Source of the DNA: Minisyncoccota bacterium
Lineage (GTDB): Bacteria > Patescibacteriota > Minisyncoccia > Phycocordibacterales > Phycocordibacteraceae
Reading direction: 5' to 3'
DNA length: 64,000 bases
Assembly (NCBI GenBank): GCA_022842945.1
Contig: JALHOO010000001.1
Coordinates: 93,830 to 157,829 of the forward strand
Made by a program: the position numbers and the translations under genes. This document shows, one piece after another, positions 1,682 through 60,933 of the stretch. Each line of letters begins with the position of its first letter. The stretch's first letter is position 1. The notes below the pieces were generated by a model that made no database searches, was not told the DNA's origin, and was given only the letters and a program-made list of their open reading frames with translations.

Positions 1682-3427
1682 TTACGCGCGGTCCTTAATC
1701 TCGGTAGTGATGCGAGAGACGAACTCCTCAACAGATACTGCACCTTCTTGTCCGCGGTCGCGGCTTTCAACAGACACCGCCTTCGCTTCAATCTCCTTGT
1801 CGCCAATAACAAGCATGTAAGGAAGCTTCTCTTGCTTTGCGGCTCTGATGCGCTTGCCGAGCGACTCCTTCGAATCATCAAGCTCAACGCGCACCCCGGC
1901 AGACTTGAGGGTCTTGAAGACCTCTGTCGCGTAGTCTGCTTGCGCGTCTGAGACCGGAAGAACACGGGCCTGTACGGGAGCGAGCCAGGTTGGGAAGGCA
2001 CCTGCGAAGTGTTCGATAAGGAAGCCAATGAAGCGCTCGTGGGTGCCGAGCGGCGCGCGATGGATAACGGCCGGAACCTTCTTCTGCCCATCCTTATCGG
2101 TGTACTCAAGACCGAACCGCTTGCCCATGAAGAGATCGAGCTGGTTTGTTGAGGCCGTGAATGCGCGTCCAATAGTAGAGAAAATCTGGAAGTCCATCTT
2201 TGGTCCATAGAACGCAGCGCCCTCATGAACAACCTTGTACGGCACGCCGGACTTCTCCATGGCCTCAATAGTCATGCGTTCTGCATCCTTCCAGTCCTCT
2301 TCGTCGCCGTGGTACTTCTCCATATTGTTAGGATCTCGAAGCGCGAGCTCCATAACGTAATCCTTGATGCCAAGCGTCTTGTAGTAGTACTCGTGAAGCT
2401 GGATAACGCGCACGAACTCCTCAACGGCCTCTTCCTTCTGAATGTAGATGTGCGCGTCGTTCATCTGCATGCCGCGTACGCGCATGAGTCCAAAGAGACT
2501 GCCGGAGTCTTCGTACCGGTGGCACCAGCCGTACTCTGCGTAGCGGACAGGGAGGTCACGGTAGCTTTTCGGACGAGCCGCGAACGCCTTGTGATGGAAC
2601 GGGCAGTTCATTGGCTTGATGTAGAAGTTTGCGTCCTCAATTTGGATAGGCGCGTACATGCTGTCCTTGTAGAGAGGTAGGTGGCCGGACGTGTAGAACA
2701 GATCCTCCTTGGTGATTATCGGTGTGGTGATGCGCTCATAGCCCCACTCACGCTCTGTCTCCTTTGCCCAGTTCTCAAGTTCCTCTTTGATGATGTTTCC
2801 CTTCGGGAGCCATATAGGGAGTCCTTTGCCGATAGCCTCGTCAAAATGGAACAGATCGAGTGCTTCGCCGATAACACGATGGTCGCGCTTCTTCGCCTCT
2901 TCTTGCTTCGCCTGGTACGCCTCCAGCTCCTTCTTGGTATCAAAGGCAAGGCCGTAGATGCGGGTGAGCATCGCGTTCTTCTCGTCGCCGCGCCAGTATG
3001 CGCCTGCGATGCGCTCAAGGATGAATGAGCCCTTCTTTATGTCGTGCGCAGGCTGTTCTGAGTGTCCGCCACGGCAGAGGTCCGTGAAGTCGCCTGCGGT
3101 GTAGAGCGTGATAGATTCTCCAGCCTCAACAATGCCGTCGATGAGTTCGAGTTTGTAGGGGTTTCCGCTGAAACGGTCGCGTGCGTCCTCCTTAGAAACC
3201 TCAGCACCCGTCATGCTGGTCCATGAGGGAAGTATCTCCTCCATGGAAGCCTGGAGCTTCTCAAGATCAGCCTCCTTGGGAGCCTCGCCTCCTGAGAAAT
3301 CGAAGTCGTAATAAAAGCCATTCTCAACTGCGGGGCCAATAGTTGGCTTTGCGTGCGGATACCGTTCTAGGACCGCGCTTGCGAGTACATGGGCGAGGGT
3401 GTGTCGTTTTTCTTCGAGGGATGCCAT
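1682..3427 (-). CDS. thrS: threonyl-tRNA synthetase, lacking the N-terminal TGS domain
   Basis: Class II aaRS core and anticodon-binding domain; the editing-domain start HTLAHVLA is present; length is 581 aa. Confidence 0.93.
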   Translation of the reverse strand: MASLEEKRHTLAHVLASAVLERYPHAKPTIGPAVENGFYYDFDFSGGEAPKEADLEKLQASMEEILPSWTSMTGAEVSKEDARDRFSGNPYKLELIDGIVEAGESITLYTAGDFTDLCRGGHSEQPAHDIKKGSFILERIAGAYWRGDEKNAMLTRIYGLAFDTKKELEAYQAKQEEAKKRDHRVIGEALDLFHFDEAIGKGLPIWLPKGNIIKEELENWAKETEREWGYERITTPIITKEDLFYTSGHLPLYKDSMYAPIQIEDANFYIKPMNCPFHHKAFAARPKSYRDLPVRYAEYGWCHRYEDSGSLFGLMRVRGMQMNDAHIYIQKEEAVEEFVRVIQLHEYYYKTLGIKDYVMELALRDPNNMEKYHGDEEDWKDAERMTIEAMEKSGVPYKVVHEGAAFYGPKMDFQIFSTIGRAFTASTNQLDLFMGKRFGLEYTDKDGQKKVPAVIHRAPLGTHERFIGFLIEHFAGAFPTWLAPVQARVLPVSDAQADYATEVFKTLKSAGVRVELDDSKESLGKRIRAAKQEKLPYMLVIGDKEIEAKAVSVESRDRGQEGAVSVEEFVSRITTEIKDRA

Positions 3428-30962: not shown

Positions 30963-31436
30963 ATGACAGAGAAGGCAAAGAGTACAAAAGAGCTGGAGAA
31001 GACCGTTGATGACGGTGCTTCGATAACCAGTGATTTGCCTGCCGATAAGACAGTTAATAGGTCTAGCTTTTCAAGTTGGAGTCGTGCGATACCGCCTGCA
31101 GAGCTAAAAAAGCCGGACGTAGCTCGTGCGATAGCGAAGATGCTTCTCATGCTCAATGATGACCTTCAACGTGATCTTGAGAAGGCCCATCCATTTGAGG
31201 CTAAATTCTATGAGGCCGATAAGCGTACAGAAGTGCTCAAGGAGAGAATACGTGGCCTGCAAAAATCGGTCGGTGTAAAGGTACTATTCTCCTCTGCGGG
31301 CTTTGGCCTCGTGGGCTTTTCACCGTTCCTTTGGGACAAATATGTTCCACTATTTATACTGGCCATAGCTTTAGGAATCGTACTCATTGTCGTCGGTTAC
31401 TTCATAAAGGATATAAGTGACAAATTCGAAAAGTAA
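30963..31436 (+). CDS. hypothetical protein with C-terminal double TM helix (157 aa)
   Basis: Soluble charged N-terminal region, then VLFSSAGFGLVGFSPFLW...LFILAIALGIVLIVVGYFI. Confidence 0.5.
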   Translation: MTEKAKSTKELEKTVDDGASITSDLPADKTVNRSSFSSWSRAIPPAELKKPDVARAIAKMLLMLNDDLQRDLEKAHPFEAKFYEADKRTEVLKERIRGLQKSVGVKVLFSSAGFGLVGFSPFLWDKYVPLFILAIALGIVLIVVGYFIKDISDKFEK

Positions 31437-31440
31437 ATCT

Positions 31441-31824
31441 ATGCAGATTGAAATTAAGAAAATTGTAGATAGAGATCTCCTGGAGCAAGAAAGAGCAGTT
31501 CTTGGTGTAGTTTCTGATACTTTCTTAGGAAATTTTGCGATATTCCAAACTCACTCAAACTCATCCGGAACTGTATCAACACAGATAAAAAGAACATATT
31601 GGTTTCCAGATCGGGATGTGAAGGCTGGCGATATAATTGTTATTTATACTAAGTCTGGGAAGAATAAAGTGCGTGACAATGACGATGGTACTCAGTCACA
31701 TTTCTTCTATCTTGGAAAGGATGCGCCAATTTGGAAAGACGATTCCTCAGCACTGGCAATAATTAATATCCTTGAGTGGGACTATAAAACGGCTGATGGA
31801 AAAGGAGGGAGAGAAAAGATTTAG
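31441..31824 (+). CDS. hypothetical protein (127 aa)
   Basis: ATG 4 nt after the upstream stop; low-GC codon usage shared with the island. An alternative GTG start lies at 31417. Confidence 0.45.
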   Translation: MQIEIKKIVDRDLLEQERAVLGVVSDTFLGNFAIFQTHSNSSGTVSTQIKRTYWFPDRDVKAGDIIVIYTKSGKNKVRDNDDGTQSHFFYLGKDAPIWKDDSSALAIINILEWDYKTADGKGGREKI

Positions 31825-31964
31825 ACCACATGGGCTATTTTTAGATTGGTATAAGAAACTTGTTAGTCACCCTTAAATAAGGTGGTCGATCACGCCTGCA
31901 TGGACCTTGCGATCTAACTGAGCAAAATCTAAGCCTTAAATACTGTATATATTCTTACAGTCGG

Positions 31965-31985
31965 GAAGTGGGGTAGAATACTGTG
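31965..31985 (+). promoter_or_regulatory. extended -10-like element (TGgggTAGAAT) upstream of the MmeI-family gene
   Basis: AT-rich 200-nt gap; TGnTAGAAT about 45 nt upstream of the ATG at 32031. Confidence 0.3.
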
Positions 31986-32030
31986 ACAAAGACTTAGTAG
32001 GAATGCTGCCAAAAAGACCCCAAGAAATTT

Positions 32031-34709
32031 ATGATCAATCTAGTAAGCCTACAGGAGGATCTTGAGAATCTCAGTCAGAAATTTTCAAAGCAAACGTTTG
32101 TCTTTGATTTGCTGTCCGTGTATGGACTGCCGAAAAGCACCATCTCTTTACTTTTCAAAAACCCCTCAAAGCTATCGGGAAAGGAAGATCAGATCATTTT
32201 AAAAAACAAGGTGCTTTTTCACATAACCAACTTAGAAGAAGACGAGCACGTCGCTATCGATACTCTACAAAAGGATAAGAACTCATATAAATTCAATCCT
32301 CGATTCATTATCGTTACGGACTTTGCAACATTCTTGGCTGTAGATACAAAAACAAAGGAGACTCTTGATATCCAGATTGGGGATCTCGGCAGACATTACG
32401 CATTTTTCTTGCCGTGGTGTGGCATGGAAAAATCACAGCATGTTAATGAGAACCCTGCTGATATTCGTGCTGCCTACAAAATGGACAAGTTGTATCAGGC
32501 AATTGTTAATGACGATCCAGAATACTATAAGAACAATAGTCACGATTTAAACATATTTCTATCACGGCTTCTTTTCTGTTTCTTCGCCGAAGATACCGGA
32601 ATCTTCCCGAAAGCAGGATTATTCACAAACTCAGTAATTTCTCATACTCATGAAAATGGTGAAGAGTTAGATGCACATTTCTCAACGCTGTTTGATCTGT
32701 TGAACACAAAAGATAGCGACCGGTCAAAGTTTGCATCTCACTTTTTGGAATTCCCATATGTAAATGGGGGTCTTTTTGAAGACAAGATTAAGTTACCTGC
32801 ATTTACTGCTAGTTCACGAAAACTGATTATTGAGTGTGGAAAATTGAATTGGGATTCAATCAATCCTGACATCTTCGGGTCTATGATCCAGGCTGTCGTT
32901 CATCCTGGACAGCGAGAGAATCTCGGAATGCACTACACCTCTGTGCCTAACATAATGAAGGTGATTGAACCGCTCTTTCTTAATGATTTGTACGAAGAAT
33001 TAGAAAGGTCGAAAAATGATCCAAAGAAATTAGAAAATCTTCGTGACAGAGTTTCCAAGATCAAGATATTTGATCCAGCCTGTGGATCAGGTAATTTCCT
33101 CATTATCTCGTACAAGGAGTTATCAAAACTAGAATCAAAAATAGTTGCTTACGCCAAAGCCATTGGGCATGACATGGTGCAGTACTCTGGTGTATCTCTA
33201 AACTCTTTCTACGGAATAGAGATAGATGACTTTGCTCATGAAATTGCCAGACTTTCACTTTGGCTAGCTCAACACCAAATGAACCAGTATTTCGATGGAA
33301 TGTTTGGAATTATGAAAGCAACACTCCCGCTTAAAGAAAGCGGAAAGATTGTTTGTGGTAATGCCACGAGAGTCGATTGGGAGGAGGTCTGTCCTCGTAA
33401 AGATAAGGTTGTAGGAGAACATGAAATATATGTAATTGGTAATCCTCCTTACTACGGGGCAAGAAAGCAAGATGACGAACAGAAAGAAGATATCAATAGA
33501 ATTTTTAAGGGGGTCAAGAATGCGAGCAATCTGGATTATATTTCCTGCTGGTTTCTTCTTGGCAAGAACTATATTCAAGGCACAAAGATCAAGCTGGCTT
33601 TTGTTTCAACAAATTCAATTTGCCAGGGCGAGCAGGTCTCTATTCTATGGCCACTAATTTTAAAAGACCAAATCGAAATAGGTTTCGCGTACCAGTCATT
33701 TAAATGGAAGAACAGTGCCAAGGGTAATGCCGGAGTCACTTGCGTTATTGTTGGATTAAGAGCTGAAGCAAAAAATCATAAATATATTTTTAGTGGTCAA
33801 ATTAAGATTTCAGCCAAAAATATATCACCGTATCTTGTAGATACTGATAATCTTTTTGTGCAAAAAAGAAGTAAACCGCTATCACAGATTCCAGAGATGT
33901 GCTTTGGAAGTATGCCTAATGATGGTGGATATCTTTTGATTGACCAGAATGAGTATGTAGAACTTAAAAGTAATAATCCTACTGTTCTTAGTTTTATAAA
34001 ACGATGCTACGGTGGCCAGGAATTTATCAAGGGAATTGTCAGGTATTGTATTTGGATCAGTGATAAAGAAGTTGACAGTGCTATGAAGATTGAATTTATT
34101 AAAAATAGAGTCGAGCTAGTTCAATCATATCGAAGTAAGAGTGACAGGGAAGCAACTAGAAAATTGTCTGCAAAGCCTTACAAATTTGGTGAGATTAGAC
34201 ACCTTGATACCAATTCAATCATTGTTCCTCGAGTTTCGTCCGAATTGCGTGATTACATTCCTGTAGGTTTTCTGACCAAGAACGATATCATCACTGATTC
34301 TGCCCAGGTTATATATAACGCCGAGCCTTATATTTTTGCTGTACTAAATTCACACATGCACATGACCTGGGTGCGTGCTGTTGGAGGAAAATTGAAGACT
34401 GACTTGAGGTACTCGTCCGCACTTTGTTACAACACCTTCCCATTTCCAGAGATTACCCCAAAGCAAAAGGACTCGCTTGCTACTCATGTCTATAATATTC
34501 TCGAAGAGCGCGAGAAATATCCCAATAAAACGATGGCAGACCTGTATGATCCAGTAAAGATGCCGGATAGCTTGAGGGAAGCTCATAAATATTTAGACCT
34601 CGCCATAGACCAAATATATCGAAACAAACCCTTTGAAAGTGATGAAGATCGGTTGGCTCATTTGTTCAAATTCTACGAAGAGATGATTACTAGAGAAACC
34701 AACGGATAA
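32031..34709 (+). CDS. MmeI-family (Type IIL / ISP-like) N6-adenine DNA methyltransferase with C-terminal target-recognition domain and an N-terminal nuclease-like domain of uncertain activity
   Basis: Motif I FDPACGSGNFLI and motif IV NPPY (VIGNPPYYG). MmeI-family signatures RLLFCFFAEDTGIF, FPYVNGGLF, HYTSVPNIMKVIEPLF, FVSTNSICQGEQVSILWPLIL, RYSSALCYNTFPF and the ADLYDP..MP..L..AH..LD C-terminal helix. Confidence 0.85.
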   Translation: MINLVSLQEDLENLSQKFSKQTFVFDLLSVYGLPKSTISLLFKNPSKLSGKEDQIILKNKVLFHITNLEEDEHVAIDTLQKDKNSYKFNPRFIIVTDFATFLAVDTKTKETLDIQIGDLGRHYAFFLPWCGMEKSQHVNENPADIRAAYKMDKLYQAIVNDDPEYYKNNSHDLNIFLSRLLFCFFAEDTGIFPKAGLFTNSVISHTHENGEELDAHFSTLFDLLNTKDSDRSKFASHFLEFPYVNGGLFEDKIKLPAFTASSRKLIIECGKLNWDSINPDIFGSMIQAVVHPGQRENLGMHYTSVPNIMKVIEPLFLNDLYEELERSKNDPKKLENLRDRVSKIKIFDPACGSGNFLIISYKELSKLESKIVAYAKAIGHDMVQYSGVSLNSFYGIEIDDFAHEIARLSLWLAQHQMNQYFDGMFGIMKATLPLKESGKIVCGNATRVDWEEVCPRKDKVVGEHEIYVIGNPPYYGARKQDDEQKEDINRIFKGVKNASNLDYISCWFLLGKNYIQGTKIKLAFVSTNSICQGEQVSILWPLILKDQIEIGFAYQSFKWKNSAKGNAGVTCVIVGLRAEAKNHKYIFSGQIKISAKNISPYLVDTDNLFVQKRSKPLSQIPEMCFGSMPNDGGYLLIDQNEYVELKSNNPTVLSFIKRCYGGQEFIKGIVRYCIWISDKEVDSAMKIEFIKNRVELVQSYRSKSDREATRKLSAKPYKFGEIRHLDTNSIIVPRVSSELRDYIPVGFLTKNDIITDSAQVIYNAEPYIFAVLNSHMHMTWVRAVGGKLKTDLRYSSALCYNTFPFPEITPKQKDSLATHVYNILEEREKYPNKTMADLYDPVKMPDSLREAHKYLDLAIDQIYRNKPFESDEDRLAHLFKFYEEMITRETNG

Positions 34710-34713
34710 TTTT

Positions 34714-36651
34714 ATGAAAACCATTCAAGTCGCCGAAGCAACATACGAACAGACGGGGCAAAGTACCAAGCTTAACGAGCTTGGTATGCGTGAAATGCAA
34801 GCCAAAGCATTCGAAAAAAAGGGTGCTCAGTACCTACTTTTGAAAGCCCCTCCAGCATCTGGAAAGTCCAGAGCATTGATGTTCCTTGCTTTAGATAAAC
34901 TTGCCAATCAAGGCATCAAAAAAGTCATTGTTGCCGTTCCCGAGAGATCTATCGGTGGATCTTTTAGTGAGACCAATCTAACTGAGAGTGGTTTCTTTGC
35001 AGATTGGAAACCAAATGATGACTACAACCTTTGTACTCCTGGTCTAGATAATGCAAAAGGCAAGGTCGAAGCGTTTAAGAATTTTGTGAATAACGATGAG
35101 AAGATCCTCATCTGCACTCATTCAACGCTTCGCTTCGCATGTGAACAAATTGAAGACTCAAAATTCAATGATATGCTCATTGCGATTGACGAATTCCATC
35201 ATGTGTCTGCTGACAAAGAGAGCAGCATTTTAGGGCGCGTTTTGCACGGAATAATGACTAATTCAAACGCGCATATTATTGCGATGACAGGGTCATACTT
35301 CAGGGGAGATGGTGTTGCTGTTCTGTTGCCACAGGATGAGGCAAAGTTTCAGAAAGTGACATACAACTACTACCAGCAGTTGAATGGCTACACCTATTTA
35401 AAGACCCTAGGTATCGGGTACCATTTTTACCAAGGCAGATACACATCAGCGATTACTGAGGTGTTGGATACAAACAAGAAGACGATTCTACATATTCCGA
35501 ACGTGAACTCCGGGGAGTCCACAAAGGATAAGCTCAATGAAGTCGATCTGATCTTGGATATCATCGGAGAAGTAGATCATCAGGATCATGAGACTGGTGT
35601 TATCTATGTAAGACGTGACGGAGACGGAAAGATGCTTAAGGTCGCAAACCTTGTCGACGATTCAGTCGATCGAGACAAGATATCAAACTACCTCCGTACC
35701 ATGAAAAACGAGGATGATATGGATATCATCATTGCTTTGGGTATGGCAAAAGAAGGTTTTGACTGGCCGTACTGCGAACATGCACTGACTGTCGGCTATC
35801 GAAGCTCTCTCACAGAGATCATCCAGATCATCGGCCGCTGCACCCGTGATAGTGCTAACAAGACTCATGCTCAGTTTACAAACCTCATCGCCCAGCCTGA
35901 CGCAAAGGACGGTGAGGTTAAGGTGTCCGTAAACAACATGCTGAAGGCGATTACCTGCTCTCTACTTATGGAGCAAGTCATGGCCCCGCACTACAACTTC
36001 AAGCCTCGATTCCCCAATGACGACAATTCTTTTACTCCGGGCGAGATTAAAGTAAATGGATTTAAGGCACCAAGCACCGAACGGGTGAGAGAAATCATTG
36101 AATCAGATATCAACGATCTCAAGGCATCTATTCTTCAGGACGACCAAATGATTAAGGCGTTGCCTGGAAATGTTGATCCTGAGGTAATAAACAAGGTGAT
36201 GATCCCAAAGATTATCCAAATGAAGTATCCAGATCTTAGCGATCTTGAGGTTGAGGAAGTCCGCCAGCATGTCGTTGTTGACTCTGTAATTAAGAACGGA
36301 GAAATTAAGATTGTAGGAGACAAGAAGTTTGTCAGAATGGCGGGGCAGTTTGTGAATATCGACGATCTTAATATTGATCTCATTGATAGCATCAACCCCT
36401 TCCAGGAAGCCTTTGAAATACTTTCAAAATCCGTGACAACGGGCATCCTCAAGGTCATTCAGGACACAATCGACTCTTCCCGAATCGAGATGACACCAGA
36501 GGAAGTTAAGATTCTATGGCCTAAGGCAAAAGAGTTTACAATCCAGACAGGTCGGAAGCCTGAAGTTACTTCGTCCGATCCGCTTGAGAAAAGGCTAGCC
36601 GAAGCGGTGCTCTATCTGAAGAAACTCAAGGCCGAGCAAATCCAAAATTAA
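34714..36651 (+). CDS. SF2 DExH-box helicase (restriction Res/HsdR-like ATPase core, no nuclease domain)
   Basis: Motif I APPASGKS, motif II DEFH, motif III TGS, motif VI QIIGRCTR. Located 4 nt after the methyltransferase stop. Confidence 0.8.
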   Translation: MKTIQVAEATYEQTGQSTKLNELGMREMQAKAFEKKGAQYLLLKAPPASGKSRALMFLALDKLANQGIKKVIVAVPERSIGGSFSETNLTESGFFADWKPNDDYNLCTPGLDNAKGKVEAFKNFVNNDEKILICTHSTLRFACEQIEDSKFNDMLIAIDEFHHVSADKESSILGRVLHGIMTNSNAHIIAMTGSYFRGDGVAVLLPQDEAKFQKVTYNYYQQLNGYTYLKTLGIGYHFYQGRYTSAITEVLDTNKKTILHIPNVNSGESTKDKLNEVDLILDIIGEVDHQDHETGVIYVRRDGDGKMLKVANLVDDSVDRDKISNYLRTMKNEDDMDIIIALGMAKEGFDWPYCEHALTVGYRSSLTEIIQIIGRCTRDSANKTHAQFTNLIAQPDAKDGEVKVSVNNMLKAITCSLLMEQVMAPHYNFKPRFPNDDNSFTPGEIKVNGFKAPSTERVREIIESDINDLKASILQDDQMIKALPGNVDPEVINKVMIPKIIQMKYPDLSDLEVEEVRQHVVVDSVIKNGEIKIVGDKKFVRMAGQFVNIDDLNIDLIDSINPFQEAFEILSKSVTTGILKVIQDTIDSSRIEMTPEEVKILWPKAKEFTIQTGRKPEVTSSDPLEKRLAEAVLYLKKLKAEQIQN

Positions 36652-36652
36652 T

Positions 36653-37801
36653 ATGGATAGAAACGATTTACTAGATTTGCTAAATGATGACGACCTAGGA
36701 CTTCTCGATATAGAGAAGAAGTCTGTTTCCGTTACGCCAGATGATCGGCTATCAGAATCATTTATGGAAATAAATGAGTTTTTCTTGGCGCATAATAACG
36801 AACCAAAGAGTGGCGGAGATATCCATGAACACAAGCTTGCATCAAGACTTAAGCACATCAGAGAGAATAAAGAGCAAAGAGACTTCCTCAGTAAATACGA
36901 TACTCATAGTCTATTGAAGACTGATGCAAAGGATCTCGATACCGTAAGTGATATTTTTGCAGACGACGATTTGGATCTCCTTTCGCTTGAGGATAGTTCT
37001 GTTTTTAACATAAAGAACGTTCCAGAAATCAGACAAGATCGCTCCAACCCCGACTTCGTTGCACAGAGAGAGATTTGTACTGATTTCGATAAGTATGAGT
37101 ATCTGTTTGCACAGGTTCAAAGGGACCTAAAGAGCGGAACAAAGAAGCTGGCTAGCTTTGTTGAAAGTGAGATGAAAGAAGGCGACTTTTTTGTACTTAG
37201 TGGAGTGCTCATATATCTCGAAAAAATTGATGATCCATACCGAGGTAACAGTCAAAAAATAAACAGGCGAACTCGTTGTATTTATGAGAACGGGACTGAA
37301 TCAAGCGTGCTTCTTCGATCGCTTGGGAAAAGACTTTCTGATGCAGGGTATGCCATAAAGGGTAATTCAGAGATGGTGGCTATTGAAGATGGAGATTCTG
37401 AGACAGGCTATATCTATGTACTTAAGTCCCTAAGTGAGAATCCAAGGATCGCAACTACTAAAAACCTTTTCAAGATTGGTTTCTCAACTACTCGTGTCGA
37501 AGAGCGTATAAGGAACGCAGAACAGGACCCTACGTATCTAATGGCTCCAGTTTCTATTGTCGCTACTTACCGATGTTTCAACATGAATCCTCAGCGGTTC
37601 GAAAGGCTGATACACCGTTTCTTCAGTGAGTCATGTCTGGATCTTGAAATCACCGACAAGGATGGGAGAAGTTATGTTCCAAAGGAGTGGTTCGTAGCAC
37701 CAATAACGGTAATCGGAAATACCATCGAACTAATCATCAAGGGAGAGATCGTCAATTATTCTTATGACAAAGATACTGAGTCAATTGAAAAGATTAGATA
37801 A
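36653..37801 (+). CDS. protein with an acidic N-terminal tandem motif and a C-terminal T5orf172/GIY-YIG-superfamily nuclease-like domain
   Basis: GYIYVLKS...KIGFSTTRVEERIRN...ERLIHRFF...EWFVAP matches the T5orf172 (MUG113) pattern. DDDLGLLDIEKKSVSV and DDDLDLLSLEDSSVFN repeats. Begins 1 nt after the helicase stop. Confidence 0.7.
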   Translation: MDRNDLLDLLNDDDLGLLDIEKKSVSVTPDDRLSESFMEINEFFLAHNNEPKSGGDIHEHKLASRLKHIRENKEQRDFLSKYDTHSLLKTDAKDLDTVSDIFADDDLDLLSLEDSSVFNIKNVPEIRQDRSNPDFVAQREICTDFDKYEYLFAQVQRDLKSGTKKLASFVESEMKEGDFFVLSGVLIYLEKIDDPYRGNSQKINRRTRCIYENGTESSVLLRSLGKRLSDAGYAIKGNSEMVAIEDGDSETGYIYVLKSLSENPRIATTKNLFKIGFSTTRVEERIRNAEQDPTYLMAPVSIVATYRCFNMNPQRFERLIHRFFSESCLDLEITDKDGRSYVPKEWFVAPITVIGNTIELIIKGEIVNYSYDKDTESIEKIR

Positions 37802-37809
37802 TACTTCTC

Positions 37810-38259
37810 TCAAATAGGATTCACAATTTTATTGAAATGCCTAGACGGCACTGGTGTAACCGAAAGCCTCGACCCTTTTTGTAAAATCATCATCCCTAAA
37901 GAAGCATCGGCACGTATATCCGATAGGGTAACGGGCACATCAAACTTCTTTACGAACGCAATATCAACCAAGTCCCATATTGGCCTTGCTTCAGTTGCAC
38001 GCTTGTCGTAGTAGTCGCTCTTCGGATCAAACTGCGTTGGGTCTGGATACGCTTCCGTAACAACCTTTGCAATCCCATACACTCCAGGAACCTTGCAGTT
38101 GGAATGATAGAAGAGAACCTCGTCGCCAACCCGCATCTCACGCATATAGTTCCTCGCTTGAAAGTTCCGCACGCCATTCCATGACGTCTTTCTATCCTTC
38201 TTTAAATGGTCTATCCCGTAGCTCTCGGGCTCTGACTTCATAAGCCAATACTGCTTCAT
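37810..38259 (-). CDS. EVE (PUA-like/YTH-like) domain protein
   Basis: MKQYWLMKSEPESY...WNGVRNFQARNYMREMRVGDEVLFYHS is the canonical EVE N-terminus. Confidence 0.8.
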   Translation of the reverse strand: MKQYWLMKSEPESYGIDHLKKDRKTSWNGVRNFQARNYMREMRVGDEVLFYHSNCKVPGVYGIAKVVTEAYPDPTQFDPKSDYYDKRATEARPIWDLVDIAFVKKFDVPVTLSDIRADASLGMMILQKGSRLSVTPVPSRHFNKIVNPI

Positions 38260-56731: not shown

Positions 56732-56756
56732 AGGTTCGATCCCTAGTCTGCCACCA

Positions 56757-56789
56757 TAAAAAATACCCTTGCGATTTTGGTCGCAAGGG
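56757..56789 (-). terminator. terminator of the 56808..57233 gene
   Basis: CCCTTGCGA-TTTTGG-TCGCAAGGG followed by a minus-strand TATTTTTTA. Confidence 0.55.
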
Positions 56790-56807
56790 CAAGTGTGAGA
56801 ACAAGTC

Positions 56808-57233
56808 TCAGGGTTTAGGGGCGTACTTCTGACAAATCAGTTCGTCATGGACCTCGGCCGCAACCGCGCTCATGGCGAGCTCGGCGAGCATGGCTCTTGG
56901 CGAAAGCTCGAAGAAGCGTCCCGCGGGTCCTGCCCTGAAGTTGCGTTCGTCCTCTACCCAGTAGACTTCGCATCCCAACACCGTAGCGATGGATGCGCGG
57001 GAGTAATACTGACCGTCTTCGAAGCTCCTTCCCGCAGTTACGATCTTTGCGAGCGTTGCAGTCGTAAACCTCTTCTTCTTGAACCAGGCCTGGAGTTTCT
57101 CCTTCACTGATTTGTAGAACCAGTGCGGATTCATATCAGTGGAGGAGGGCGGATTCTGGAACTCGATCGCATCGGGCCCCAAATTATTTTCCCGAATGAA
57201 CCTCAGGGCAAGGTCTGCAATGTACTTTCCCAT
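56808..57233 (-). CDS. hypothetical protein (141 aa)
   Basis: ORF with a downstream terminator. Confidence 0.5.
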   Translation of the reverse strand: MGKYIADLALRFIRENNLGPDAIEFQNPPSSTDMNPHWFYKSVKEKLQAWFKKKRFTTATLAKIVTAGRSFEDGQYYSRASIATVLGCEVYWVEDERNFRAGPAGRFFELSPRAMLAELAMSAVAAEVHDELICQKYAPKP

Positions 57234-57375
57234 TTCTAGTCTCCTTTAAAGAGATAACCCACCTGGTCTTAATGACGCGTGCCCTGGGAAAGGCAGTATT
57301 GGTGAGTCCAGCTACGAAGTAGTGGCAGTCACAAGATGCTACTTTTGTGCGTAAAAGTCAAGTATAGGCCGGGCT

Positions 57376-57412
57376 ACAAAAGTTCCAACAACGTCCCAGA
57401 CAGCCAGCAATG
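57376..57412 (+). repeat. direct repeat copy 1 (37 nt)
   Basis: ACAAAAGTTCCAACAACGTCCCAGACAGCCAGCAATG; 33/37 identical to copy 2. Confidence 0.7.
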
Positions 57413-57735
57413 TTTTAAAACCTAGTCTGCGCAGATAGACAGAGTGATACTTTGGAACAGGTACCCATATTGACGTTCATATGCTCGGGTATATACTTCT
57501 TTCAGAAGATGTTCCTGGTAGCAGGTAGAGGAGCTTAGCCCACGGGCTGAAATAGCAACTCTAGAAGCTCTGTCCTCCCGCTGGGGGACGGTGTGCTCCG
57601 ACGGAAATCGTTGGATAGGCCGATTAAATTCGGAAAGATTCACAGGGACTTGCGCTGCTGCGCATGCACCACGAATCGGCATCAACATCTTCGCCGCTTT
57701 CTCATTGGGTCCGGACTTGTTCCGGGCCTTTTCTT
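57413..57735 (+). ncRNA. candidate ~300-nt non-coding RNA or regulatory leader bounded by direct repeat 1 and an intrinsic terminator
   Basis: No convincing ORF. GC-rich self-complementary segments, then the GGGTCCGGAC-TTG-TTCCGGGCC hairpin followed by TTTTCTT. Confidence 0.35.
57708..57735 (+). terminator. intrinsic terminator inside the 554-nt intergenic region
   Basis: Stem GTCCGGA/TCCGGGC followed by a T-tract on the plus strand only. Confidence 0.5.
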
Positions 57736-57737
57736 AT

Positions 57738-57774
57738 ACAAAGGTTCCAACATCGTCCCAGACTGCCAGCAACG
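57738..57774 (+). repeat. direct repeat copy 2 (37 nt), overlapping the promoter/-10 (TATACT) of the methyltransferase gene
   Basis: ACAAAGGTTCCAACATCGTCCCAGACTGCCAGCAACG, followed by GTATACT 6 nt before the ATG. Confidence 0.7.
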
Positions 57775-57787
57775 GTATACTTGCAAC

Positions 57788-58375
57788 ATGGAAAAACAAC
57801 CTAAGGGCTGGGGTGCATTCGCGGAACATGTGAAGGAACGAGCACCTGACGAGACACTTCAGGAAGCTATTACCTACGTACAGGATAGGGAGGCGGCTCT
57901 TGATATGGGGGCAGGCGCACTAAACGAAACGAAGCATCTCCTCGCCTCTGGTTTTCAAAGAGTTGTAGCGCTGGACGCAGAGCCAAGCATTGTTGAGAGA
58001 GCAAAGGGTCAAGCGGGCGGCGAACGTCTCGAGGTTATAGTGTCTCGGTTCGAAGACTACGAGTTCCCACCGAATGCCTTCGACCTCGTTAACGCACGAT
58101 ACTCTCTGCCCTTCATGTCACCGGCTTCCTTTGAGGAAGTATTCGCTAAGATAAAGGCATCTCTCAAGTTTGGGGGTATATTCACAGGCCAGATGTTTGG
58201 TCCCAATGATTTCAGAAACAACCAAGAGGGCATGACTATGCATTCTCGTGAGGGGGTAGAAAGTTTGCTTTCCGATATGGAAATTATTGAGCTAGAGGAA
58301 GAGGAGTATGACGGTCCAACGTATAGCCAGGGCACGCAGCACTGGCATGTGTATACCGTTGTAGCGCGCAAGTAA
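57788..58375 (+). CDS. class I SAM-dependent methyltransferase
   Basis: Motif I LDMGAGALNETKHL and motif II VVALD. Confidence 0.75.
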   Translation: MEKQPKGWGAFAEHVKERAPDETLQEAITYVQDREAALDMGAGALNETKHLLASGFQRVVALDAEPSIVERAKGQAGGERLEVIVSRFEDYEFPPNAFDLVNARYSLPFMSPASFEEVFAKIKASLKFGGIFTGQMFGPNDFRNNQEGMTMHSREGVESLLSDMEIIELEEEEYDGPTYSQGTQHWHVYTVVARK

Positions 58376-58656
58376 TTACATATATATACGAGCCGGGCCC
58401 GCCCTACGATTAACGCAGTGCGGGCCCGGCAATCAATCCTTTAGTTTCCGTATCATACAGGCGCTGTGTGATTAGCGTCTCGTAAGGATCTTTCCGTATG
58501 CCGCGCATCTATTCCGTAGCGATACACGGCCTAAAAGTGAGGAAAGAACTATGAGGACTGGTACAGGGGAGCACGTATGCATTCCGTGTGTTCCTCAACA
58601 GTACTCATAGTAGCGAGAAGGCTATGAACCCAGTATGAACGAATTCATGAAGACTT

Positions 58657-60403: not shown

Positions 60404-60933
60404 ACGTACAGCAGTTAATGGCTAAAATCAGTACTGTAACTGTAGCTATTAGACCATGAAGCCTTCATGAACGAAGAAAACCCGCACTATGCGGGTCTTC
60501 GAGAAAGAGCGAAACTGGCGCAGGAGTGGGGTTTATGCGGGTCCGCTCCCATCCTGTGCCAGCCGATTCGTCACCTGGATGGTGCGAGCCTCTTCCATTG
60601 GACTTGCTCCGGCATTGGTCGCCGGAGCTCCTCCGTTAGCTCCAGAAGTGTAGCGCAAAACGCGAAAAAGGGCACCCATTTCACGGCCCATTCTCTAGCT
60701 TTTAGAAGTTGTGTCTTGAATGCTTTCAGGAATGTTTCGTACTGGTTTATCCACGCTGAGATTTCGATGAAGGCGGGTATCATACAGAGACAAACCAGCC
60801 GAATGCAGTTGGAAAGAGCGGAAGATAGCGCCACGGCGTCCTCACCGCAGTCCAAAGTGGAGAGAAATCCCTGCCAGCGTTTAGAGCCAAGGCTGTCTTA
60901 TAAACGTTCTGAGTAACCTACGGGATTATCTCT

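Follow-up and report, generated by a model that had tools for sequence, protein, structure and literature searches.

What is the role of two near-identical direct repeats that lie between divergent genes and enclose a stretch without an obvious gene of its own? The question arises from a 64,000-nucleotide stretch of a Minisyncoccota bacterium assembly (contig JALHOO010000001.1, positions 93,830 to 157,829), which we call the window and to which all coordinates without a locus name refer. In the window, an intergenic gap separates the gene of a 141-amino-acid (aa) protein from that of a methyltransferase. An initial annotation, made from the sequence alone, had described two 37-nt repeats in this gap and had read them either as copies of one promoter or as the flanks of a small inserted element, with a candidate non-coding RNA (ncRNA) or leader in between. 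Our analysis favours a different answer. We think it probable, on balance, that the repeats are polar junction sites of about 34 bp which delimit interchangeable small cassettes in Patescibacteria (Paceibacterota/Parcubacteria group), accreting in an integron-like manner.

The repeat pair itself was borne out. The two copies form a single family of 43 nt (57375-57417 and 57737-57779, 86% identical, 362 nt from start to start), and direct reading of the 37-mers gave the 33 of 37 identical positions reported earlier. The same holds for the 554-nt length of the gap between the divergent genes (57234-57787) and for the geometry of the methyltransferase start, with TATACT at 57776-57781, six further bases and the ATG at 57788. 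When a degenerate 29-nt pattern was derived from both copies, only these two matches were found in 64 kb, and none in 100 shuffles of the sequence.

Outside the window, the same sequence is common. A gapped exact pattern covering four instances (those of the window and of L008/L009; L numbers denote loci) was scanned over a metagenome collection and matched at least 120 contigs. We then built a profile from 139 distinct instances of what we call the A site; array counts given below refer to 129 collected loci, nearly all of them metagenomic. The profile search returned 280 A sites on these 129 loci, compared with two in the window, and the sequence of about 34 nt is fixed throughout. Its consensus reads A-n-AAAR-GTTCCAACATCGTCCCAGAC-N-GCCAG-CAA (short form A-AAAG-GTTCCAACATCGTCCCAGAC-N-GCCAGCAA; 34 positions). 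The boundaries are sharp: the 139 distinct instances carry information only between positions -5 and +29, and the flanks hold about 0 bits on both sides. Positions 8-12 and 27 had been left unconstrained in the search pattern, yet they are 86-95% conserved; position 21 is free. Since the site-bearing contigs span 33 to 63% G+C, the A site has been conserved against strong compositional drift.

The bacteria in question can be placed at several points. The window encodes compact rpoB, rpoC, dnaE and SMC, and its histidyl-tRNA synthetase shows 65-80% identity to proteins labelled Patescibacteria group, Candidatus Paceibacterota or Parcubacteria, one of which is encoded on the same 674-kb contig as the site-bearing locus L036. 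Exact look-ups placed the site-bearing L029, L030 and L036 in Patescibacteria/Paceibacterota. The site pattern had no match among the viral contigs of IMG/VR. A literature search, which included the site sequence itself, returned no description of the A site or of cassette arrays in these bacteria, and Rfam applied to 15 array loci reported only tRNAs and one LOOT RNA, with nothing at the A site. The LOOT RNA (RF03000, 68 bits) lies upstream of the array in L074 (952-1065).

With the limits of the family-wide site at hand, the promoter reading can be judged. The second repeat had been said to overlap the -10 element; this is true of the 43-nt pair (57737-57779) but not of the family-wide site, which ends at 57772-57773 and leaves the -10 box outside. 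That one promoter was duplicated, its copies driving an RNA and the methyltransferase, was suggested by the TATACT-N6-ATG arrangement behind copy 2. However, copy 1 reads TGTTTTAAAA where copy 2 reads CGGTATACTT and thus has no -10, the distance from site to -10 box is variable across the family, the RNA has its own promoter, which lies some 90 nt downstream of copy 1, and the 280 copies elsewhere stand regardless of gene direction. A duplicated sigma-70 promoter also failed because the TATACT of copy 2 lacks a -35-like hexamer at a distance of 17 nt upstream. We therefore regard this reading as hardly tenable. The predicted leaderless promoter TATACT-N6-ATG is part of the methyltransferase cassette, not of the repeat.

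The second suggestion, a small inserted element, fared better in one half: there is a discrete 326-nt insert bounded by two site copies, but its flanks are no target-site duplication. A transposon or miniature inverted-repeat transposable element with such a duplication was rejected, as the same 34 nt occur at 280 places and the spacer ends carry no inverted repeats. Three further candidates were dismissed for the A site. As coding sequence it has wobble-like positions (9, 21 and 27) but no 3-nt periodicity (103/114/125; 148 divergent sites). As an attC-like hairpin it would pair with its flank no better than chance, the core-flank duplex reaching -18.8 kcal/mol versus -18.35 kcal/mol with shuffled flanks (147 sites); the fold z of site plus flank is about -0.3 to -0.6. 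A DNA uptake sequence was discarded in view of just two A sites and one B site (a related sequence, described below) in 64 kb that include rpoBC and dnaE, all clustered and strictly co-oriented. Of 147 strong A sites, 12 have in common a 32-nt extension in their upstream flank (-35 to -1), TCTGGACAGAAC-CTAGCAT-nnn-TTGCATAAAG (for example L049 3000-3032; L120 345-376 and 676-707), whose first part shows partial complementarity to GTTC...GTCCCAGA in the site.

A sites form arrays of up to nine per locus, and in none of the 69 multi-site loci (225 sites) did we find them in mixed orientation. They are spaced at a median of 558 nt (5-95% range 318-1385 nt, 155 intervals), and 117 of the 155 intervals contain one called open reading frame (ORF) of at least 60 aa. 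In 90 intervals the largest ORF has the orientation of the site and in 46, about a third of the 136 ORF-bearing cassettes, the opposite one; 19 have no called ORF of this length, and with every ORF counted only 6 of 156 intervals are ORF-less. Typically, a forward ORF ends within the A-rich leader of the site that follows; in about 65 of 119 cases, the ORF upstream of a site has its stop codon in the last 8 nt ahead of the core. Judged by sequence, forward genes usually have their own leaderless TATACT-N6-ATG start at a site-to--10 distance of 6 to 33 nt (40 forward cassettes), and reversed genes carry their own TTGACA-type promoter and terminator. In many cases a terminator closely precedes the A site and a -10 box closely follows it. 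Encoded in the cassettes is a mixture of accessory functions, including NUDIX, GNAT, DUF218 and HAD proteins, small kinases and transporters.

Because the A site follows neither gene direction nor promoter spacing, a promoter or operator role is excluded, and the range of -10 distances likewise led us to reject it as a fixed-spacing promoter element. A more general alternative is that the site binds a conserved protein, be it a regulator, an insulator or a nucleoid protein, and that cassette turnover is a by-product of homologous recombination between 34-bp repeats, e.g. after natural transformation. The position exactly between transcription units, often behind a terminator and before a -10 box, would suit such a protein, as would the strong conservation and the lack of a dedicated recombinase. 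The variable -10 distance does not, nor does the fact that the gene is reversed in 46 of 136 cassettes and the site never. Moreover, the 64-kb window is full of ordinary operons and holds only two to three sites, so the A site is no general boundary element. We consider a protein-binding site to be quite improbable; it would also leave the link to tRNA-Gln, set out below, unexplained.

Some arrays have further neighbours. Reverse transcriptases and AbiEii/OLD-like AAA ATPases are encoded within a few kb of some of them, in no consistent arrangement (L048 8779-10065; L107 2789-4210; L061 700-2172; L106 1276-2694), which suggests that the arrays reside in defence-rich variable regions. In addition, the contig pairs L015/L128, L018/L075, L031/L032 and L065/L122 have exact 123-nt ends in common that resemble branch points of an assembly graph; these shared ends would fit strain-level rearrangement around the arrays.

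Comparison of related contigs revealed that whole cassettes are present or absent between sites. L114 has one extra interval of about 850 nt between two sites, where L121 has a single site. The two have one interval in common, which is 95% identical and whose exact limits are motif position 0 of one site and motif position 29 of the site after it, and the DNA beyond it is also shared (92%). That near-identical contigs differ by exactly one cassette points to recent and precise events, which lend indirect support to excision and integration by site-specific recombination between the repeats.

The cassettes of the window behave in the same way. Window and L097 are 96% identical at the nucleotide level over the 141-aa gene and the first A site up to motif position 27 and unrelated beyond. 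In L130, where the 141-aa protein is 78% identical, the same gene and site are followed by a cassette for a short-chain dehydrogenase (adh_short) and a partial site. The unit is bracketed by sites in L097 and L130, with different outer neighbours, and at the position of the window's B site there is a canonical A site in L097 and a B-like sequence in L130. From this it follows that the 141-aa gene is itself a reversed cassette. Its leader (57234-57360, minus strand), which contains an AAAGGAG Shine-Dalgarno sequence, is conserved between window and L130 to about the same degree as the protein (78% of aa); it could be a cis-regulatory RNA, and it gave no Rfam match.

On the other side of the spacer, a homologue of the methyltransferase (66% protein identity) occurs in L008/L009 as a cassette with the same promoter and with sites on both sides. 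The roughly 45 nt before the ATG are 91% identical between the second A site of the window and L008/L009, where a shorter variant precedes the next gene. The closest methyltransferase homologues are found in unrelated gene neighbourhoods. A search of representative-genome contigs with the methyltransferase yielded only cyanobacterial relatives of 35-40% identity, and its exact look-up returned no contig. The closest homologue (71%) is located in L006 (1-9200)/L007, in a cassette-like run of 11 genes (NUDIX, kinases, GNAT) that immediately follows a tRNA-Gln(CTG) gene and extends to a convergent large serine recombinase; neither A sites nor a repeat of the tRNA end were found in this run.

Where do such sites come from? 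Judged from the alignment, the A site has diverged from a copy of the tRNA-Gln 3' end: the tRNA end reads GGTTC / GA / TCCC / TAGTC / TCCCAGCA, and the A site GGTTC / CAACATCG / TCCC / AGAC / TGCCAGCA. A second kind of site, which we call the B site, is closer to the tRNA. By profile search, 40 distinct loci were found to have a B site, in every case with the orientation of the A sites; in 39 of the 40 it lies upstream of the first A site (the exception scores only 15 bits). That is, as with an att site, a repeat that shares sequence with a tRNA 3' end lies in an array that adjoins this end in the same orientation. In 10 of these loci ARAGORN identified a complete tRNA-Gln gene (anticodon TTG or CTG) in the same orientation. 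The B site is the 3' end of the gene in some loci and a separate fragment after the gene in L010, L015, L018 and L053; for L093, which has a complete tRNA-Gln gene, no B match was listed. In the remaining B loci, as in the window, only a fragment from the T-arm to the acceptor is present. The window's B site aligns to real tRNA-Gln 3' ends. The A consensus is common to all arrays and distinct from the local tRNA-Gln sequence. Two general features of the arrays are probably explained by tRNA anchoring: among the 57 loci of at least 3 kb, 51 have more G than C on the site strand, and several arrays lie downstream of a conserved dnaX neighbourhood.

The relation to tRNA-Gln raises the possibility that A sites are fossil scars of larger, integrase-bearing elements that repeatedly integrated at tRNA-Gln and then decayed, leaving immobile cassettes and sites without present function. 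In L010 (7845-7950) and L079 (about 3100-3200), the intact tRNA-Gln gene is followed by incomplete duplicates that extend from the D/anticodon region to the 3' end, as is typical of classical integrative islands; the arrays lack an associated integrase; and the L006/L007 island combines tRNA-Gln, similar cargo and a large serine recombinase with an absence of A sites. Yet scars should decay, and the 34-nt site is nearly invariant across the whole G+C range while its flanks are free of information. The intervals keep closely to cassette size and their ORFs end in the site leader, near-identical contigs differ by one exact cassette, and all arrays share one A consensus that is not that of the local tRNA-Gln. 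We rate the scar explanation as unlikely. The extreme conservation of the site, the regular cassette size and the ordering relative to tRNA-Gln argue against scars and protein-binding sites alike; the latter would not account for tRNA-Gln anchoring, the strict order of B before A or the resemblance to a tRNA 3' end.

Read in terms of junction sites that delimit cassettes, the window holds a three-cassette array composed of the B site, the reversed 141-aa gene, the first A site, the 326-nt RNA cassette, the second A site and the methyltransferase (Table 1), which lies away from any tRNA gene. The B site of this array was rejected as a real tRNA gene, since only the T-arm-to-acceptor fragment is present and no tRNA gene was found.

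Table 1. Coordinates of the cassette array and adjoining features in the window.
Feature	Position	Strand	Remarks
B site	56733..56757	+	GGTTCGATCCCTAGTCTGCCACCA; tRNA-Gln 3'-end-like, no tRNA body; right after the stop codon of an ABC-2 permease; proximal array end; lies upstream of the A sites and in their orientation; 30 bits (B-site profile)
Cassette 1, terminator hairpin	about 56766-56790		
Cassette 1, 141-aa protein of unknown function	56808..57233	-	reversed relative to the sites; no Pfam family
Cassette 1, leader	57234-57360	-	conserved, ~125 nt, with Shine-Dalgarno sequence
A site, copy 1	57376..57411	+	core position 1 = G of GTTCC, 57382; 40 bits (nhmmer)
Cassette 2, predicted promoter	57470..57497	+	sigma-70-type, TTGACG-16-TATACT; 10/12 consensus matches
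Cassette 2, predicted structured ncRNA (~230 nt)	57504..57735	+	from promoter, terminator and fold
Cassette 2, predicted intrinsic terminator	57707..57735	+	9-bp G+C-rich stem, 5-nt loop, TTTTCTT
A site, copy 2	57738..57773	+	core position 1 at 57744; 46 bits (nhmmer)
Cassette 3, leaderless promoter and 195-aa class I S-adenosylmethionine-dependent methyltransferase	57776..58375	+	ATG at 57788
Hairpin after the methyltransferase	58392..58430	.	17-nt arms, 88% complementary

The spacer between the two A sites forms one cassette, and it is non-coding. Its longest ORF (88 aa, minus strand, 57422-57688) has a codon-usage log-odds score of -0.32, compared with 0.52 +/- 0.15 for genes of the window and -0.52 +/- 0.38 for wrong frames, and all six frames of the spacer score negative. 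The ORF product had no Pfam match, no similarity to any cassette protein and, among 1.84 billion representative proteins, two weak multi-stretch matches only and no real homologue. Codon usage, homology and Pfam together ruled it out as a gene, in agreement with the initial annotation, which had seen no credible ORF here. A promoter and a terminator are present on the plus strand only, and the terminator-like hairpin described before (GGGTCCGGA/TCCGGGCCT, 57707-57729, followed by TTTTCTT) was recovered. In the fold of the predicted transcript (about 57504-57735), a closing stem of 9 bp pairs 57505-57513 with 57684-57692, starts at the predicted transcription start and encloses six hairpins; a linker and the terminator follow. 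With a minimum free energy of -95.3 kcal/mol the fold is unusually stable (z = -4.05, and -4.08 in a second computation): 45 random 234-nt control windows of the same sequence had a mean z of 0.00 (s.d. 1.19, minimum -2.45), and the minus strand of the RNA region had z = -1.09. Rfam 15 gave no gathering-level match in the whole window and no family for the spacer; the best match in 57200-57850 (E = 1.2) covered the terminator only, and up to E = 10 this region produced only terminator look-alikes. ARAGORN detected neither a tRNA nor a tmRNA in the window.

The middle cassette thus seems to encode a structured ncRNA of about 230 nt with its own promoter and terminator. As neither an Rfam family nor a homologue was found, the RNA remains a prediction, and in this sense the candidate ncRNA of the initial annotation stands, on promoter, terminator, missing coding signal and fold. 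Its designation as a leader does not: the methyltransferase has its own leaderless promoter and occurs with site and promoter, and without the spacer RNA, in L008/L009. As an alternative for the spacer only, the 326 nt may be a degraded protein-coding cassette or inert filler. Neither blastn against the 129 loci nor against phage and plasmid collections found a homologue, hence there was no covariation to draw on, and intervals without a called ORF exist elsewhere, too (19 of 155, or 6 of 156 with all ORFs counted). It would, however, be surprising for a decayed cassette to have, on one strand and correctly ordered, a promoter close to consensus and a strong terminator, or to have a closing helix that begins at the predicted start, a fold beyond all 45 controls and no residual similarity to any cassette protein. 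We consider decay or filler possible but doubtful.

How could such arrays arise? In the mechanism we propose, an array would start at the tRNA-Gln 3' end or at a detached copy of it, the B site. A recombinase supplied in trans would recombine B with A and A with A, so that cassettes with one A site each would be inserted beside the tRNA end, accumulate in tandem and be excised again. B would play the role of attI and A that of attC, both being att sites of the tRNA-targeting kind; because the units are single genes without integrases, the function would be integron-like. The tRNA-type site at the proximal end, the tRNA-derived site common to all units, the strict co-orientation and the precise differences of single units are what repeated site-specific integration beside a tRNA 3' end would yield, and from this pattern we infer a recombination driven by a putative enzyme. 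The RNA, if made, may be a functional cargo.

Several observations weigh against this proposal. No recombinase is tied to the arrays. The window contained no tyrosine recombinase by tblastn, and Xer-like tyrosine recombinases were found beyond the distal end of only three distinct arrays, at 15 nt (after the last A site of L084), 0.9 kb and 2.7 kb. These three reach 80-136 bits on TIGR02249, far below the cut-off of 265, and look like generic Xer-family proteins rather than IntI. A Pfam survey of 150 array-flanking proteins disclosed no recurrent recombinase. The A site has neither visible dyad symmetry nor a hairpin partner, and since it is nearly invariant, leaving too few informative pairs, the crossover point could not be located; we would expect it in the shared TGCCAGCA end. 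In the window itself, no trailing A site was found after the methyltransferase, the last cassette, to mark the distal array end, and ARAGORN detected no tRNA-Gln gene beside the array. Only a few site-bearing contigs are individually tied to Patescibacteria/Paceibacterota. Finally, the spacer has no homologue in the collections searched, and the RNA cassette could be a decayed cassette that folds well by chance.

Among known systems, integrons, especially sedentary chromosomal ones, are similar in many respects. They, too, have co-oriented sites, mostly one-gene cassettes with heterogeneous accessory cargo (GNAT, NUDIX), ORFs that abut the next site, cassettes that are present or absent as a whole, a first site unlike the internal ones (here B and A) and gene-less cassettes. 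But the A site is a linear, near-fixed sequence of 34 nt, whereas attC is an imperfect hairpin of 55-140 nt conserved in structure only. Furthermore, no IntI lies beside the arrays, the cassettes appear to carry their own promoters and terminators and are reversed in about a third of cases, whereas integron cassettes are promoterless and depend on the platform promoter Pc, and the arrays are anchored at the tRNA-Gln 3' end instead of at attI beside intI.

In tandem accretion at tRNA or tmRNA genes, as in integrase-less cis-mobilizable elements (CIMEs) and the ssrA islands of Dehalococcoides, the att repeats stem from the 3' end of a small-RNA gene. The arrays share this origin, as well as the co-orientation with the gene, the stacking of units and the lack of an own integrase. 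In contrast to multi-gene islands, their units are single genes or an RNA of 0.3-1.4 kb, with up to nine per array; a 5-6-nt insertion distinguishes the A consensus, which is conserved throughout a wide clade, from the local tRNA; and arrays also occur at detached tRNA-end fragments far from tRNA genes. Unlike a tRNA-targeting integrative element, they have no element-encoded integrase beside the att site, and their cassettes contain a single small accessory gene or no gene at all.

Xer/pdif modules of Acinetobacter plasmids are bounded by short (about 28-bp) sites, which are imperfect palindromes in alternating orientation, and are acted on by a host recombinase in trans. Small gene modules between short recombination-type sites are common to both systems, but A sites are non-palindromic and strictly direct, and no similarity to the dif consensus was seen. 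With regard to the RNA cassette, small RNAs are known from integron cassettes of Xanthomonas. Promoter-bearing gene-less cassettes have been described for Vibrionaceae integron arrays (PMC11014356). Such cassettes resemble ours in having no protein gene, a promoter and possibly an RNA; the RNA predicted here is longer (about 230 nt) and multi-branched, has its own terminator and belongs to no described family. Taken together, the A-site arrays combine features of integron-like cassette arrays and of tRNA-anchored tandem integration.

Two observations concern other parts of the window. A low-G+C island at about 31000-38000 (38-43%, versus about 54% elsewhere) encodes an 892-aa protein weakly similar to the PglX methyltransferases of bacteriophage exclusion (BREX) systems and ORFs of 645 and 382 aa; it is probably a horizontally acquired, defence-type island. 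Just upstream of a ribonucleotide reductase gene, a 149-aa ORF (60467-60913, plus strand) has non-coding-like codon usage (-0.39) and no Pfam family, and may not be a gene; the stretch may instead serve the reductase as a regulatory leader.

Almost no member of the Patescibacteria, which have tiny genomes and live on other cells, has been cultured, and it is poorly understood how accessory genes are acquired and exchanged among them. Our literature search found no report of integrons in this group. We see an even chance that the arrays represent a clade-wide, integron-independent system of gene capture in Patescibacteria, in which the tRNA-Gln 3' end or portable copies of it would serve for docking, each cassette would bear a 34-bp pseudo-tRNA site, and a recombinase acting in trans would shuffle self-expressed single-gene and RNA-only cassettes. 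If so, the arrays would be a second, independently evolved example of the integron strategy, and the RNA-only cassette would offer a candidate for a new structured RNA carried as mobile cargo. The 34-nt site could then be used to fish cassettes from any metagenome, giving a handle on the flexible gene pool of these bacteria, and as a short att site it might be exploited for genetic tools in Patescibacteria.

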